Part shown: positions 2,738 to 38,285 of the stretch, in pieces | Position numbering within the stretch: position 1 is the first letter of the stretch | How the letters are laid out: each line of letters starts with the position of its first letter | IMG/VR virus record: IMGVR_UViG_2541047917_000006 | Coordinates: 1 to 42,169 of that record | Length of the DNA stretch: 42,169 nucleotides | From: a virus | Taxonomy: Duplodnaviria > Heunggongvirae > Uroviricota > Caudoviricetes | Strand: one strand, 5' to 3' | Position numbers and translations under genes: made by a program | Notes under the pieces: model-generated | What the model was told of the DNA's origin: nothing | What the model saw: the letters and a program-made list of their open reading frames with translations, nothing else | The model's database searches: none

Positions 2738-3187
2738 TCACTCTCCTTTTCCCTGAAGCATAGCGGCACGGCAGGCGTTACATATTTCGGCAGCAATATC
2801 GCGCTCGCTATCGGTTAATTTGTACGTGGAAACATAGCCAGAGAGCATTTCTACGTTTTCCGGAGTTGCTTCTTCCGGCACTACCGGCGCTGGCGGGGCG
2901 ATGCGTCCAAGCAACTTATTTACCTCTTTCGCCATCGCGTCATATTTATCTAAATGGCGATTAGCTTCTAAGCAGACTCGGCGCATCTGATCTGAGTTAA
3001 CTCGTTTAACTGGATCTGCTTCCAGCGATGCCAGCGCAATCCGTGCCAGTTTTAGATCTCGTGCAACCATCTCAATAACAACTTTGCAGTCCGCACCTTC
3101 TTTGCTAACACGTCCTTTCAAGTTTTCCAGATAACTAACGCTTTCGCGTGCATGGGAGATTAACTGTTCTTTGGTAAAGGTGGTCAT
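2738..3187 (-). CDS. Hypothetical protein, 149 aa
   Basis: ORF tightly packed between neighbours; stop abuts the start of the downstream gene. Confidence 0.6.
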   Translation of the reverse strand: MTTFTKEQLISHARESVSYLENLKGRVSKEGADCKVVIEMVARDLKLARIALASLEADPVKRVNSDQMRRVCLEANRHLDKYDAMAKEVNKLLGRIAPPAPVVPEEATPENVEMLSGYVSTYKLTDSERDIAAEICNACRAAMLQGKGE

Positions 3188-3372
3188 TAGGCAGCTCTCT
3201 CAATAACAAGCAATTCGTCGTAGTCATAATCAGTTTCGGAACCATCCGTACCGAACAGAGTCACTTTGTCATTTTCCATCCAAAAAGATTTAACCGCACA
3301 TTGTTGACCTTTAGATGTTATGAGCACATCACCAGGGATTACGTCTTCAGCGCGAACCTCTAGTGTTCTCAT
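3187..3372 (-). CDS. Hypothetical small protein, 61 aa
   Basis: ORF overlapping both neighbours by 1-4 nt, consistent with translational coupling. Confidence 0.5.
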   Translation of the reverse strand: MRTLEVRAEDVIPGDVLITSKGQQCAVKSFWMENDKVTLFGTDGSETDYDYDELLVIERAA

Positions 3373-3899
3373 CGTGCTGCCCCCTCTTTGGTGAAAATGC
3401 CTGCTGCAATGCTGTTTATGATGCTGTCAGTGCATGGAGTAGAAAGCTGGGCATCTCCAGCAATTTTCATGACCTCAACATCCGCATATCGAATACCGAG
3501 GTGTATCAGACCGGCTATACCTGACTTAAGTCGAACATTTTCCATAAACAGATCTTTTTCCCGCTGTTTAGCGGCTTCCAACTCCATCGACAATTTTTCC
3601 AACTGCTCTTTATGCTTCTTGTATTCCTGATACGCGTGCCAAGACTGACCTTTGCGCACACTATCAGTGATATCAGCAACCTGCTCCGGTGTTAGCGTGG
3701 TCAGTGGCTGTGCTGGAAAAATCATCACTTTCCCGGCATCCCAATCAAAACCCGCCTGAATTGACTGAACCTCAACTGATGGTGTTGAACCGATGCGACC
3801 AGGCGAATGAACAACGATCGTTACATCCATATCGCGACGATGGCTGTGGTTGTTGGACAAAATACGATTCACCAACTCAGAAAATTTGGAAAATTTCAT
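3369..3899 (-). CDS. Hypothetical protein, 176 aa
   Basis: Start reassigned to internal [10 protein letters not shown], whose ATG overlaps the upstream stop (ATGA); coiled-coil middle section. Confidence 0.6.
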
Positions 3900-32454: not shown

Positions 32455-34562
32455 GTTTACCCGAAGGATTTGTTCTCGATAATCAGCCTGATAACTCACA
32501 GCTTCCTGATGGTTTTGTGCTTGATTCCCAACCAGAGCAGCAGCAATCACCTTTGGTTTCACCAGAGGAAAACTCCAGACAGGAAAATGTTGTTAATAAT
32601 GCTAACGGCTTCGACCGTTTTATGTATGGCGTTCTCAGTGGATTGATGGATGTTGGTAAAGGTGTTGGTCTATTTCAGGATATGACACCAGAAGAGCAAG
32701 CCGCAATTCAGTCTCTACAGCAGAAGTTAGCGGCAAAACCATCAACCGCACAAGATGTTGGTGAGTTCGTTGGACAAGCAGCACCATTTGTTAGTGGTGG
32801 TGGGATTATTTCTCAGGTTCCGAAAGGGGCGGCAAGGCTGGCTGCCGCCGCAGGGCTTGGTGCTGGAGAAGGGGCTATTGTAGCCAATGGAACAAATAGC
32901 GATGTTGCTTCTGGAGCTGCTATTGGCGCTGTGGCTGGCCCTGTAGCAGAGATTGTTGGTCCAGCGCTTGGGAAGATTGCAGGAAAAATTAAAAATAGTG
33001 CCGGAGATATTTATCGCTCATCCGTAGGGATGGGTAGTAAATCATCTAAAGCAACGTTAAAGAAAGCTGCTGGCGCAATGGACAATAAATTTATCGGCGG
33101 GCAACGAGCTATTCAAGATTTCGCCGATGAAGTTAATCCTGATTTTAACGCGATAAATGCTATTCGTGAGCTAGAACTGGAAAATTATGCCACTCCAGGC
33201 ATGATCTCTAATAATCCTGCTGTCAGGGCTCTTGATAATGCAGTGGCAAGTCTCCCTGGAACAGAGATTAGTGAGGCGCATAAGCGTTTTATTACTGAAT
33301 TAGGAAGAAAAGCTGATGAAATGATAACTTCATTTGGGGGAAGCCTTGATAAGCAACTGGTTTCTGACAGGCTTGCAGATAATTTTGATAAAACCATTTC
33401 ATCATTACAAAATCAGTCAGATAACATCTACAACAAAATTGCCGAAAAGGTTCCTGTAAGAGACCGGATTGAGGCAACTAATACATTGAATTTTTTAGAG
33501 GATTTTGCTGATGATATAGGTGGAATTGATGAATTATCTCCAATAATGAAGCGGACATTGAACCGACTTGATCCAAACACCTTGCCAACGTATGGGCGTT
33601 TAGATCTCGCTAGAAAGCAGGTTGGACAAGCTATTGGCAAAGGCTCTGGTCCATTCAAGGATGAAGAAACAGGTGTTCTTAAAAAGTTATATGCAGCCAT
33701 AACAGATGACCAACAGGCTGTCGCAGAAAAATATGGCGCAGGGGAATTATGGACGCTTGGTAAGGAGTTGGTAAAAAAACGAAAATCCATTGAAGATGAT
33801 GCTGTAACCGTCTTGGGTAGAAAACTTCAGCAATCAGCAATTCCAAAAGTTGAAAGTGCTGTTGTTAATATGGCAAAAGGAAACGGTGGCGACTTTAGGC
33901 AATTAATGAAGTCGATTCCAAAGGATATGCGGCAGGAAGTTGCGCTCACCTCAATGAATAAAGCATTTACCAGCTATGCCAAATCACCTGGTCAGCAATT
34001 AGGAGTTGATGGATTTGTAAAATGGTATAACGGAATGTCACGCAATGGGGCCAATATGAAGGCTCTCCGTGATGCTATTGGCACAGATGCATCAAAGCGC
34101 CTTGATACGATTTATCAAGCAGCTAAGGCTATGAATAGACTCAATACTGGTAAGCAGTATGCTAGTAGTCTTGTGGATCAGCAAGTTAATAACTTTCTGA
34201 AAGAAAAGGGTAGTCTCGCAAAAATTTATGGAATAGCCTCAAAAGCTGCTGCGGCGGAAGGTATTACAAGCTTATCTGGTCTTCCTGGTGTAGGTGCAAC
34301 AGGGGTGATAACGTCAGCATTGATGTCAGGGAAAACAAGCAGGATAAAGGCTGCTGATGCTCTACTGTCTTCTCCTGAGTTTAAATCAATGCTATTTCGC
34401 CTGCAAAACGCACCAGTAGACAGAGCAGAAGTGAGACGCGTAATAGAAAGGAAACTGATGCAATCTGGGGCATTTAAGAGATGGGAGAAAACCTTATCAA
34501 CAGATGAAGCAAAAACCATTGCCCGCACGGGGATTATTACATGGCTCGCTAGTGACAGTTAG
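32439..34562 (+). CDS. Ejection protein (P22 gp16-like), 707 aa
   Basis: Position and size; last gene of the ejection-protein block. Confidence 0.75.
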
Positions 34563-34786
34563 TCAACTTTGGTTATTTTGCCTTCTTTTTCTTGATGAAC
34601 TTTGCATCCATCGTCTTTTGATAGCCAAACTAAAAACTTTAAAACCTTAAACACAAGTACGGCTACTGCAATGAAAGCACCAATTGCAATTATTGCAAGC
34701 GAAATTATTTGCATTGGTGCTTTTAATGCAGGGAAAATAGTGTAAATGATCGCGAAAACAGTAATTATGAGGAACCATCGCTTCAC
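34559..34786 (-). CDS. Small two-helix membrane protein, 75 aa, low-GC moron
   Basis: GTG start five nt after AAGGAGG; strongly hydrophobic with AT-rich codons; convergent with and overlapping the gp16 stop. Confidence 0.6.
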   Translation of the reverse strand: MKRWFLIITVFAIIYTIFPALKAPMQIISLAIIAIGAFIAVAVLVFKVLKFLVWLSKDDGCKVHQEKEGKITKVD

Positions 34787-35160
34787 ACCAACCTCCTTAG
34801 TTTTGAGCAGGATACCAGATGATACTGTATTGGTGGAGTGGTGTGTGAAAACGTGTCAACGACAAACCATCCACAACTTGGACGAATGATTTAGCAAAAA
34901 GTGCTATTTTTGGTGTTTAGTGTCATAGAAAAGTGAATAGCTCACTTTTCAACATTGCATGAAACTTGCAGGAAATGTGACATTACCTTATAGGTAACTT
35001 CGGCGAAAATGCAGTAAATGTGAAACGTAATGGTTTAAACATGTCGCTAAAGTGGTTGTAAGTTAGCCTCCGAAGGATTGCTGATAGCTTTGTTATAGTA
35101 TTAAATGACATTTGACATAGTTGGATACTTAGCTGTGGCTATCAAGATGGAGGTGTGTTC

Positions 35161-35604
35161 ATGCTTACTTGTTTTGATGTCGCCGACTACTTCCTGTCGC
35201 GGTGTGACGAGGATAGCGGTGACACAATCTCTAATTTAAAATTACAAAAGCTTGTTTACTATGCTCAGGGTTTTTCATTGGCGTTGCTTGGCGAGCCTCT
35301 TTTTCAGAATAAGATGGAAGCTTGGATGCATGGCCCTGTTGTCCCTGAGCTTTATCGCCGTTATAAACAATATGGTAATGGCGCTATCCCTTCTCCAGAG
35401 TCTTTTGATGCTGAAAAATTCAGCGAAGAACAGTTAGAGCTATTAGAAGAAGTCTGGGATGTTTTTGGGCAATTTTCTGCCTGGAAACTGAGGAACATGA
35501 CACACGAAGAGTCACCATGGAGATCAAACTATATTGAGGGTGTTGGTGGTTCTGAAATTAGCTCTAAGGAGATGGCAGAGTACTTTGCAACTCGGATTAA
35601 CTAA
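35161..35604 (+). CDS. Panacea-domain (DUF4065) protein, PanA/SocA-like antitoxin candidate
   Basis: ATG after GGAGGTG; CFDVADYFL...ISNLKLQKLVYYAQGFSLALLGEPLF...EAWMHGPVVPELYRRYK fits the DUF4065 consensus as I recall it. Confidence 0.7.
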   Translation: MLTCFDVADYFLSRCDEDSGDTISNLKLQKLVYYAQGFSLALLGEPLFQNKMEAWMHGPVVPELYRRYKQYGNGAIPSPESFDAEKFSEEQLELLEEVWDVFGQFSAWKLRNMTHEESPWRSNYIEGVGGSEISSKEMAEYFATRIN

Positions 35605-35608
35605 CGAG

Positions 35609-36028
35609 ATGGCAAGAAAATCTAAAAGGATTATCCCCCCTGCTGAATCTACAGGTAAGTTAAAGTTAGGGCCGCAGTCAGGGGGGAATTCAGATCAAAA
35701 GAAACCGAAATTTTCATTCTGTTACATCCAAAGCTCTCACTGCATAACGAAATGCCAAAAAGATGAGAAAGCTGGCTTAGCTGATAAATTATACAGATTA
35801 AGTCAACTAACATGGGCAGAGATTAAGCAGCAAGGTAGGCATAAGCTTGGATTTGAGAAGATTGCAAGGGGTGCGATTAAAGCAGGTATCCCCAGTCATA
35901 TAACGGAAGACGTAGATCATTTCTTGGCTTTTAGATTTGATGATTTGAAAGCCATGGTTGGTTATCGTCTTGGATCGACATTTTTTGTTATATGGCTTGA
36001 TAGAGAGTTCAACCTATACAAGCACTAA
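35609..36028 (+). CDS. Unrecognised 139-aa partner of the Panacea-domain gene (toxin candidate)
   Basis: Start MARKSKR five nt after the upstream stop; Lys-rich N-terminus with C-x5-C-x3-C; beta-rich C-terminus ...GSTFFVIWLDREFNLYKH; followed by a strong terminator. Confidence 0.6.
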   Translation: MARKSKRIIPPAESTGKLKLGPQSGGNSDQKKPKFSFCYIQSSHCITKCQKDEKAGLADKLYRLSQLTWAEIKQQGRHKLGFEKIARGAIKAGIPSHITEDVDHFLAFRFDDLKAMVGYRLGSTFFVIWLDREFNLYKH

Positions 36029-36031
36029 TAA

Positions 36032-36057
36032 AACCCACCGTCAGGTGGGTTTTTTAT
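36032..36057. terminator. Bidirectional rho-independent terminator between convergent operons
   Basis: AACCCACC-GTCA-GGTGGGTT hairpin flanked by an A-run on the left and a T-run on the right. Confidence 0.75.
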
Positions 36058-36080
36058 AAGGAGTAATCATGATTTACCCA

Positions 36081-36617
36081 TCAAACAACCCACCAGTTTG
36101 CCTGATTGGATGCCAGCCTTGCAGTTTTTATGGAATTAATTATGCCATGCTCAAGAGCCTTGTTAGCATCCAAAATGGTCGAGTCTGCTATCAGGGATGC
36201 CCACCTAATATGGGTTCCGATGTCGATATTGAACGTCTCAACGAAGCGATCAAGATCGTTATCGAGGCATTTCCCGTACTCTCTCAATCTGGCATGGTCG
36301 GCGGCTGGGGTGGCAAAGCCCCATAATAGAGGATGTAACAGGAATCTTGATAATGGGTTTGCGAAACGTTCTGAGCCAGCCAGGAAAACGATATTAGCTA
36401 TGGATTCAACATTGCTTATGTTGTGAGTTCTAACGGTAACAGGGAGTGACTTAAGAAAGTTATACGCAGTAAAGCCAGCGGCAGTTTCCCCTCCCTGACT
36501 TGATATATGGATATTTAATTCAGTTGCGCCCTGAGATAATGCGGTGAGACAGTGGTTCTGAAGTTGCCCAACAGTGGCAGTGTTAACGGGGCATAAGAAA
36601 TGAATTGTGTGCAGCAT
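36081..36617 (-). CDS. ClpP-fold serine protease-like protein, 178 aa
   Basis: ELNIHISSQGGETAAGFTAYNFLKSLPVTVRTHNISNVESIANIVFLAGSERFANPLSRFLLHPL aligns by eye with E. coli ClpP ([67 protein letters not shown]), including the Ser and His positions; start ATG overlaps the Mnt-like stop (TAATG). Confidence 0.65.
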   Translation of the reverse strand: MLHTIHFLCPVNTATVGQLQNHCLTALSQGATELNIHISSQGGETAAGFTAYNFLKSLPVTVRTHNISNVESIANIVFLAGSERFANPLSRFLLHPLLWGFATPAADHARLREYGKCLDNDLDRFVETFNIDIGTHIRWASLIADSTILDANKALEHGIINSIKTARLASNQANWWVV

Positions 36618-36865
36618 TATTTTTCATCCTTACCATACATGGTCTTTAGCGTCTCAAGCAGCGCCTCTTTGAATTTGTCAGCTTCTTGCTGAGCAAATGA
36701 CTCAACTGACTTTGGCGACCTATCTTCATCAATCGCGGCTTGCAAAATCATGACGATCTCGGAGTTAACAGAGCGACCATTTTTTGATGCTCTGACAGAA
36801 AGAGCCTCGCGTAAAGATTCAGGGATTCTTACCGTAGTTGGAGAAATTGACACACCCTTTGCCAT
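36617..36865 (-). CDS. mnt: Mnt-like ribbon-helix-helix repressor, 82 aa
   Basis: NGRSVNSEI motif and overall similarity to P22 Mnt (...ANGRSMNSEL...); same size as P22 Mnt; divergent from the arc-ant operon. Confidence 0.8.
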   Translation of the reverse strand: MAKGVSISPTTVRIPESLREALSVRASKNGRSVNSEIVMILQAAIDEDRSPKSVESFAQQEADKFKEALLETLKTMYGKDEK

Positions 36866-36979
36866 ATCACACCTTTGGTATTCAATTTGATATCAAAGTG
36901 TATGCAAAAAAATTTTGACTAGATATACTCACTTTGCTATCTTTTGTATTCGGAAAGAGTTGTTTGTGGGGAGGGTAAC

Positions 36980-37132
36980 ATGGAGAAAGAAATAAGTAAG
37001 ATTTTGGTAAGGATGCCGCAGTCGTTAAAGGATGCTATCGGTAGCAGGGCAAAGGAAGAGTGCAGGTCGTTTAACTCAGAGGTTATCAAGCGCCTGATAG
37101 ACAGCCTGAAGAGAGAGGGGGTAGTGGTATGA
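36980..37132 (+). CDS. arc: Arc-like ribbon-helix-helix repressor, 50 aa
   Basis: Start reassigned to MEKEISKILVRMPQSLKDAIGSRAKEECRSFNSEV, parallels P22 Arc (FNLRWPREVLDLVRKVAEENGRSVNSEI). Confidence 0.75.
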   Translation: MEKEISKILVRMPQSLKDAIGSRAKEECRSFNSEVIKRLIDSLKREGVVV

Positions 37133-37320
37133 AAAACCGCAGATGTTGTTTTTGTGGGTGTAGTAAAGAAACGACTGGAAGGGGCTTTGTTGTGTCAAAA
37201 AATACCGAAGAAGCAATTTGTGACTCATGCGTTACAGATATTGTTATTTTCATGCATGGCGAGAAGGGGTTAGATGAAAAGCTAGAGAGTATTCCAGTTG
37301 AAGGCGCTGATAAAAGTTGA
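37129..37320 (+). CDS. Small Cys-rich protein with ClpX-zinc-finger-like motif, 63 aa
   Basis: ATG overlaps the arc stop (ATGA) after [17 protein letters not shown]...AICDSCV resembles the ClpX zinc-binding domain C-x2-C...C-x2-C pattern. Confidence 0.6.
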
Positions 37321-37382
37321 AGCCCCAACTGCTGGAACAGTCAGGGCTTCGGTTGTCGGTAAATCCGTGGAGAAAAACCAAC

Positions 37383-38285
37383 ATGAATAGTATAGCAATT
37401 TTAGAAGCAGTGAACACCTCTTACGTGCCTTTCAATGGTCAGCATATTTTAACCGCTGTGGCTGCCGGAGTGACTTATGTAGCGATGCGTCAAATTGTGG
37501 AAAACATTGGTATAGACTGGACTGGTCAATCTGTTAAGTTGCGTAAAATGAAGGACAAATTCAACTGTAGAGATATCTCTATGGTTGCCGCTGATGGCAA
37601 GTTACGTAAGCTTTTATGCATACCGCTGAAGAAACTCAATGGATGGCTGTTCAGCATCAACCCTGAGAAAGTTCGAGCTGACATCCGCGATAAACTGATT
37701 CAGTACCAGGAAGAATGCTTTACTGTGCTGCATGACTACTGGACGAAGGGAAAGGCAGAAAATGCACGTAAGAAAACATCTGTTGATGACAGGACTCCGC
37801 TTCGTGATGCTGTAAATATGCTGGTCAGCAAAAAGCATCTAATGTACCCAGAAGCTTATGCAATGATTCATCAGCGTTTCAATGTGGAAAGTATTGAAGA
37901 GCTTGATGCATCTCAGATACCGCAAGCAGTAGAGTACATCCACAGGGTAGTGCTTGAAGGTGAGTTCATCGGCAAACAAGAGAAGAAAGCAAACGAGCTT
38001 TCTGCAAAAGAAGCAAACAGCCTTGTATGGTTATGGGATTATGCCAACCGTTCACAGGCATTATTCCGCGAACTGTATCCGGCGCTGAAACAAATTCAAT
38101 CGAACTATTCCGGCAGATGCTACGACTACGGTCATGAATTCTCGTATGTTATCGGAATGGCGAGAGACGTTTTAATAAACCACACACGAGATGTTGATAT
38201 TAATGAGCCAGACGGACCAACGAATCTTTCCGCATGGATGAGACTTAAGAATAAAGAATTACCTCCTTCAGTACATAACTACTGA
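37383..38285 (+). CDS. ant: Antirepressor Ant, 300 aa
   Basis: Start reassigned to [30 protein letters not shown]; size and position match P22 Ant downstream of arc. Confidence 0.8.

Follow-up and report, generated by a model that had tools for sequence, protein, structure and literature searches.

The stretch of DNA analysed here (42,169 nucleotides, positions 1 to 42,169 of IMG/VR record IMGVR_UViG_2541047917_000006; hereafter the window) contains the immI region of a P22-like (Lederbergvirus) Escherichia coli prophage. Between the gp16-like gene and the mnt/arc/sar/ant genes of this region lies a pair of genes, panA and T1, that forms the subject of this work. A preliminary description of the sequence had taken the pair for a candidate toxin-antitoxin (TA) or defence module in a moron hotspot, composed of a DUF4065/Panacea protein and a partner that could not be assigned to any toxin family. 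The hotspot position is confirmed by the immI setting and the nature of the first gene by its domain matches; the partner can now be recognised.

The panA-T1 cassette

The panA gene (35161-35604, plus strand) starts with ATG, has an alternative GTG start at 35155, and is served by a Shine-Dalgarno sequence, GGAGG (35148-35152, plus strand), that ends 8 nt 5´ of the ATG. Judged by its profile matches, the 147-aa product is a stand-alone Panacea protein. PF13274 (SocA_Panacea), the family against which a check had been proposed, aligns with residues 28-120 over profile positions 1-112 of 113 at 87.3 bits (cutoff 25.7; E=1.8e-24), phrog_1281 matches at E=6e-60, and the PGAP name of the protein is 'Panacea domain-containing protein'. 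The NCBIfam model SocA_antitoxin (NF047745) reaches 71.4 bits, under its equivalog cutoff of 190 bits, and PanA is thus not a SocA orthologue. Among known antitoxin domains, Panacea is the most promiscuous.

A spacer of four nucleotides (cgag), and not of five as previously counted, separates the panA stop codon from the ATG of the second gene, T1 (35609-36028, plus strand). It encodes a 139-aa protein ending in WLDREFNLYKH, which is identical at 138 of 139 positions to YP_006560566.1 of Salmonella phage vB_SemP_Emek (hereafter Emek), belongs to the same 90% cluster as this protein, and takes its name from cluster T1 of the Panacea partners (PanTs), in which the Emek protein is catalogued. The N-terminus is rich in Lys and Arg and carries Cys38, Cys45 and Cys49, and in the model the C-terminal half includes three long beta strands (104-131), as anticipated from the letters alone. 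The partner is no longer unassignable, given its identity with a catalogued T1 protein, a structural model of the RelE type and homology to a domain of the protein NsnC, both treated below.

Directly after the T1 stop codon stands an intrinsic terminator hairpin (36030-36053, plus strand) with a 10-bp GC-rich stem, a GUCA loop and a U-rich tail. Its predicted folding energy of -15.8 kcal/mol (z=-3.85) was equalled by none of 200 shuffled sequences, and the hairpin is annotated as a rho-independent terminator in Emek; fold and annotation agree with the strong terminator claimed earlier. A consensus terminator scan missed it because the U-run lies partly within the stem. On the other side of the pair, the 374-bp intergenic region 34787-35160 has a GC content of 38.5%, compared with 45.9% for the window, and is AT-rich as had been stated. 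A repeat search found two copies of a 14-nt direct repeat in this region, TGCAGGAAATGTGA (34967-34980) and TGCAGTAAATGTGA (35010-35023), identical at 13 of 14 positions and spaced 43 nt; a perfect 9-nt inverted repeat, GAAAAGTGA / TCACTTTTC, lies at 34928-34950, also 5´ of panA. Both are possible operators or other regulatory sites.

The regulatory region, panA, T1 and the terminator together make up a mobile 1.3-kb cassette (34777-36072, plus strand), delimited by nucleotide comparison with Emek: 1,296 bp are 99.15% identical between the two, and both flanks are without nucleotide similarity. In E. coli genomes the right-hand neighbour of the cassette varies, being a ClpP-like, a LexA-family or an Arc-family gene, and the window allele occurs at ≥99% identity in 48 of 5,426 complete genomes of this species. 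The pairing itself reaches much further. In five of five distant T1 homologues (44-55% identity; from Acidobacteria, Cyanobacteria, Aeromonas veronii, Solidesulfovibrio and one other metagenome-assembled genome), a PF13274 gene is found directly 5´ on the same strand, at gaps of -8 to +35 nt. Three of the homologues have prophage or integrase contexts (a P2-like tail-gene moron, a prophage with a P22 portal and an integrase island), and one adjoins a type I restriction-modification gene. Kurata et al. (2022; PNAS 119:e2102212119, PMC8832971) recognise a two-gene operon by a gap of ≤100 nt and conservation across species; here, the gap is 4 nt and the Panacea gene is upstream in all five homologues.

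Another exchange is visible in E. coli phage E212 (MZ043897.1), where positions 2962-3839 correspond to window positions 35161-36028 and hold a deeply diverged panA-T1 coding block. The flanks of this block are 97.8% (34301-35160) and 97.2% (35954-36637) identical to the window. Between them, panA is 71% identical at the nucleotide level with saturated synonymous sites (pS, the proportion of synonymous differences, 0.80), PanA is 70.7% and T1 57.5% identical in amino acids, and the replaced stretch runs from the panA start codon to about 75 nt before the T1 stop. Conserved flanks around a diverged coding block imply that an anciently diverged allele was swapped in while the regulatory region stayed the same. 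Divergence is greatest in the C-terminal tail of PanA, residues 128-147 (pN, the nonsynonymous counterpart, 0.45 compared with 0.16 elsewhere), and in the N-terminal tail of T1; it would fit a co-evolving interface, for which it is only suggestive. With their 4-nt spacer, panA and T1 are translationally close-coupled, and by these comparisons they are exchanged between phages as one unit. Diverged alleles behind one promoter region in nearly identical P22-like phages are, moreover, ready reagents for specificity swaps.

Fold and relatives of T1

T1 has no Pfam family, a PDB sequence search with the single sequence returned only a chance-level match to Caskin-2, and a PDB search with a 30-sequence T1 profile returned nothing. 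The family is large and well conserved: T1 has 182 matches in 90% clusters and 1,509 representatives at the 50% identity level (E<=1e-3), and of 149 among the best 150, nearly all have 130-149 aa. The structure prediction that had been proposed as a check was run with AlphaFold2 on a 30-sequence alignment (pLDDT 85.7, pTM 0.74), and the resulting model has a disordered basic tail (residues 1-32, pLDDT 51-67) followed by a strand, two helices and a four-stranded sheet. In a Foldseek search with this model, the top 30 PDB matches were all RelE/YoeB/HigB/YafQ/ParE toxins (probability up to 0.95). As modelled, the fold of T1 is therefore of the RelE/YoeB/HigB type (BECR), as found in ribonucleases (RNases). 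A direct hhalign comparison of the T1 family profile with one YafQ sequence aligned only 8 columns, at a probability of 0.75%.

T1 shares with RelE, YoeB, HigB and YafQ the order beta-alpha-alpha followed by an antiparallel sheet. It differs from them in lacking sequence-level matches in Pfam or the PDB, in its basic, disordered N-terminal tail of about 32 residues, in an insertion of about 19 residues (87-103) between beta2 and beta3, and in the conserved Cys45 and Cys49. Its partner is a Panacea protein rather than an antitoxin of the RelB/YefM/HigA/DinJ type and, unlike the classical members, it has been reported as non-toxic. Among 140 representatives sharing <=50% identity, G81 and E83 are invariant and several other residues nearly so (D131, Y137 and W69 98%, R109 97%, H139 96%, H78 and R120 83%). 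This pattern indicates purifying selection on residues of a catalytic type. In the model, E83 is on beta2, R109 on beta3, and Y137 and H139 are at the extreme C-terminus, positions that we take to be the topological counterparts of YoeB E46/R65/H83/Y84 and of the YafQ His residues.

A link at the level of sequence leads to Menshen, reportedly an anti-phage system of Millman 2022. The PADLOC model for the Menshen protein NsnC (PDLC03891) matches T1 residues 31-135 over profile positions 178-279 of 284 (E=5.9e-6) and is matched by 30 of 30 aligned T1 family members, at best with E=1.9e-10. NsnC's C-terminal domain, PB-BECR1, is described as a predicted BECR RNase that resembles YafQ and has an H-R-H triad, and as the sole predicted active effector of Menshen (PMC12065111). 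The match covers the whole RelE-like core of T1, and H78, R109 and H139 of T1 compare with the H-R-H triad; by these profile matches, T1 is homologous to the effector domain of NsnC. The 139-aa protein nevertheless corresponds only to the C-terminal third of the NsnC profile and is without the N-terminal inPIN domain, neither NsnA (ParB-DUF262) nor NsnB (ABC ATPase) is encoded among its neighbours, and its regulator, if any, would be a Panacea protein instead of an ATPase. With no inPIN domain, NsnA or NsnB, the locus is not a Menshen system. Panacea is unmentioned in the paper on the Menshen domains (PMC12065111), as is Menshen in the Panacea papers (PMC8832971, PMC10440598); the homology of T1 and NsnC therefore constitutes a small new connection, and it ties a cluster of "TA toxins" to a validated anti-phage effector.

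T1 might in principle poison gyrase in the manner of ParE instead of cutting RNA. We consider this highly improbable, as the set of conserved residues (His, Tyr, Glu and Arg, with Y-x-H at the C-terminus) resembles that of RNases, and as the sequence homology is to the YafQ-like RNase domain of NsnC.

Reported non-toxicity and a proposed role in phage exclusion

The cassette is not new to the literature. In the available part of their Dataset S1, Kurata et al. (2022; PMC8832971) assign Emek YP_006560565.1/YP_006560566.1 to cluster T1 as PanA and PanT, so that the cassette was already catalogued as a PanAT-T1 pair in 2022 and nothing categorically new is claimed for it here. No other Panacea partner is as common as T1: the table covers 1,268 pairs, and its available part contains at least 395 'pT1' rows. 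The catalogued pair and that of the window have in common the antitoxin-first order, a stand-alone Panacea protein of the 'noNTD' class and a prophage setting. They differ in host and flanks, the window being from an E. coli P22-like prophage, and in the annotated start of T1, which is at 35609 (139 aa) in the window and gives 161 aa in one and probably 147 aa in the other of the two proteins that were assayed.

We propose that panA and T1 form a prophage moron for the exclusion of other phages, a module in which a Panacea protein regulates an RNase of the RelE fold that is latent or narrow in its action until triggered, a reading to which we give about an even chance. T1 would be an endoribonuclease whose probable substrate is mRNA under translation, as it is for RelE, YoeB and YafQ. 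PanA would bind T1 directly and keep it off, as stand-alone Panacea proteins do with other PanTs: complexes of PanAs with their partners are on record (Kurata et al., 2022; PMC8832971), and a stand-alone Panacea protein can neutralise directly (Ernits et al., 2023; PMC10440598). PanA might also sense an infection cue, as the latter authors propose Panacea to be a sensor of unspecified cues. In the lysogen, the pair would be expressed from its own promoter; a superinfecting phage would then trigger it, with translation shutdown and exclusion of the abortive-infection type as the outcome. Besides the Panacea match, the fold, the NsnC homology, the size of the T1 family, the conservation as a pair and the exchange as a cassette or allele, the selection on catalytic-type residues counts in favour of this proposal. 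So does the location, as the interval between gp16 and mnt in P22 is the sieA superinfection-exclusion locus. A phage-exclusion module here would add another set of lysogenic-conversion genes to the P22 sieA/immI locus.

Several observations weigh against the proposal. The most direct is experimental: the Emek T1 protein, for which Table S1 of Kurata et al. (2022; PMC8832971) gives 'mRNase' as the predicted mode of action, was scored 'not toxic' in E. coli upon expression from pBAD33 behind a strong Shine-Dalgarno motif, and a second T1 protein, WP_077635758.1 of E. coli MOD1 (partner WP_089622957.1), was also 'not toxic' in the same study. E. coli is, moreover, a natural host of the cassette. 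Because T1 was not toxic, neutralisation was never assayed and is entered as 'n/a' in Table S1. At the level of sequence, none of 30 T1 family members matches Pfam RelE, YoeB, HigB or ParE, or any other Pfam family, at E<=1, and a comparison of both proteins with the PADLOC models returned no system component besides the NsnC domain. E83, R109, Y137 and H139, together with H78, are candidate catalytic residues, named on the basis of topology and conservation. The promoter, likewise, is a candidate: TGTTATAGT (35091-35099, plus strand), an extended -10 element read by eye, may serve panA, and a consensus promoter scan requiring a -35 match called none upstream of this gene. Finally, a literature search on T1 or DUF4065 in phage defence gave nothing past two PNAS papers and reviews, and the papers that could be searched contain no RNase activity, PanA-T1 complex or anti-phage phenotype for any T1 member; in the available parts of the supplements of Ernits et al. 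(2023), the Emek and MOD1 accessions had no match.

The published non-toxicity may be explained in two ways, by an RNase that is latent or narrow until triggered, or by N-terminally extended constructs that were inactive. The second possibility arises from the start codons. In the window, the T1 frame is open for 36 codons 5´ of the ATG (35534-35608), with TTG or GTG codons at -8, -21, -22, -23 and -25. As a consequence of this open frame and these codons, versions of 139, 147, 160 and 161 aa are found in databases, the 147-aa forms in abundance. The annotated Emek protein has 161 aa and begins at a TTG inside panA, with an overlap of 62 nt (gap -62 in Dataset S1), which adds 22 residues. For MOD1 the gap is -20 in the available part of Dataset S1 (PMC8832971), which in the geometry of the window would correspond to the 147-aa form from TTG 35585, with 8 extra residues. 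The ATG equivalent to 35609, in contrast to these, is the conserved start. Its methionine is aligned in 94% of the 140 representatives, and in E212 and four of the distant homologues an in-frame stop codon 3-9 codons 5´ of the conserved start leaves alternative starts that are none or marginal. The tested constructs thus probably carried non-native N-terminal extensions, of 22 and 8 residues. That the extensions caused the lack of toxicity is only moderately likely, because the native N-terminus is disordered. With probably mis-annotated starts in the only experiment, a clean re-test of the 139-aa form is warranted.

If the construct starts are to blame, the locus could be an ordinary type II TA (addiction) module, in which any RelE-like protein not bound by PanA is toxic and the 'not toxic' entries are artefacts. 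This is the main rival explanation, and we regard it as rather unlikely. The extra residues on both tested forms (for MOD1, if the match of its gap to the 147-aa form is correct), the conserved 139-aa start, and the antitoxin-first order with tight coupling, which is typical of type II, would all be accounted for. Short extensions of a tail that is predicted to be disordered (residues 1-32) are, on the other hand, unlikely to kill an enzyme of the RelE fold, and the lack of toxicity was seen with two independent constructs that differ in their extension. From pBAD, toxins of the RelE family are as a rule strongly toxic. With respect to the TA proposal of the preliminary description, the tight coupling, the conserved pairing and the terminator of its own stand as signs of a TA-like operon, and toxin activity is plausible only, with the sole experiment to the contrary. 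Taken on its face, the lack of toxicity of the Emek and MOD1 proteins speaks against a TA pair; the starts of the constructs weaken this objection. In sum, a TA or defence function is plausible, and as a classical toxin-antitoxin pair the locus is contradicted by the only experiment.

The opposite conclusion from the same data would be that T1 is no toxin at all, but a harmless RelE-fold RNA- or ribosome-binding or regulatory factor that works with PanA, e.g. by modulating prophage or host expression. Two T1 proteins were non-toxic in a species that is a natural host, T1 far exceeds any other Panacea partner in frequency by the row counts given above, and one T1 homologue sits among housekeeping genes; the RelE/ParE fold has also been reused for other biochemistry (PMC10440598). 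Such a role would leave unexplained the near-invariant Glu, Arg, Tyr and His at sites topologically equivalent to the catalytic residues of YoeB and YafQ, the homology to what is, in a validated defence system, the sole effector domain predicted to be active, and the distribution as a prophage moron on mobile genetic elements with allele replacement as a unit. We judge it to be improbable.

One intriguing variant of the proposed RNase module takes the published non-toxicity as real and the T1 pair as a sensor-effector system and not a TA: T1, a stand-alone version of the NsnC effector domain, would be an intrinsically latent RNase that is switched on only when PanA senses a phage cue, with PanA as gatekeeper or activator and not as antidote. 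We hold this to be doubtful at present. If it is correct, about one third of the predicted PanAT loci would represent a distinct abortive-infection system, and the Panacea domain would obtain its first defined sensory role. Since T1 is the most frequent Panacea partner and both tested proteins were non-toxic, the biology of the largest PanAT class is at stake.

Neighbouring genes of the immI region

The local gene order begins with the gp16-like injection gene and a membrane ORF of 75 aa (minus strand), followed by the panA-T1 pair, a ClpP-like and a Mnt-like ribbon-helix-helix gene on the minus strand, and Arc; past Arc follow a 63-aa ORF, the sar RNA, Ant, an insertion sequence (IS) and the tailspike gene. 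The 75-aa ORF (34559-34786, minus strand) has hydrophobic stretches, matches phrog_7294 and overlaps the end of the gp16-like gene; it is at the position of sieA in P22, and its place is taken in Emek by a gene resembling Sf6 gp38. The antisense RNA sar is found at 37315-37382 on the minus strand (Rfam RF00262, 91.8 bits, E=1.5e-19), a match that confirms an immI region of the P22 type. The Rfam scan of 34400-37500 gave no known RNA inside the cassette and, outside it, only sar and a meaningless resemblance to the sroH terminator.

The ClpP-like gene (36081-36617, minus strand) encodes 178 aa, matches PF00574 at E=4e-12 and also resembles ClpP-related head-maturation proteases. By eye its Ser and His motifs look retained, and it is an unusual passenger of immI. 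It overlaps the stop codon of the Mnt-like repressor gene by one base (36081-36865 for the two, minus strand), and because of this overlap the two genes appear to be co-transcribed. The 63-aa ORF between arc and ant (37129-37320, plus strand) has a CxxC...CxxC pattern, and among PDB entries it matches best to the zinc finger at the N-terminus of ClpX (6vfs, E=0.028); the match to Pfam zf-C4_ClpX (E=0.2) is below the cutoff. It may be a phage-encoded mimic of the ClpX zinc-binding domain in the immI operon. Counting SocA-family PanA, three Clp-related items thus lie within about 2.2 kb.

These neighbours bear on a type VI arrangement as in Caulobacter SocAB, in which PanA would be a ClpXP adaptor that keeps T1 degraded, possibly with the help of the ClpP-like and ClpX-zinc-finger-like genes. 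PanA carries the Panacea domain like SocA, the founding Panacea member and a ClpXP adaptor (PMC8832971). PanA falls far short of the SocA equivalog cutoff, however, and its partner has a RelE fold and is unrelated to SocB. Kurata et al. (2022; PMC8832971) found that in PanAT pairs the two proteins work through a direct complex, and an adaptor predicts that the partner alone is toxic, which was not seen. Emek and many E. coli genomes also have the cassette but lack the ClpP-like gene, and for this reason a functional link between this gene and the cassette was rejected. A SocAB-type mechanism is, on balance, very improbable for this pair.

Further downstream, a 402-aa transposase-like ORF (38379-39587, plus strand), putatively of the IS256/mutator type by reading of the sequence, separates ant from an ORF that resembles a tailspike gene (39709-41847). 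At this site E. coli APEC IMT5155 has an IS66 element, by which its tailspike gene is split. Insertion sequences may thus target the tailspike junction recurrently, and this prophage is possibly defective.

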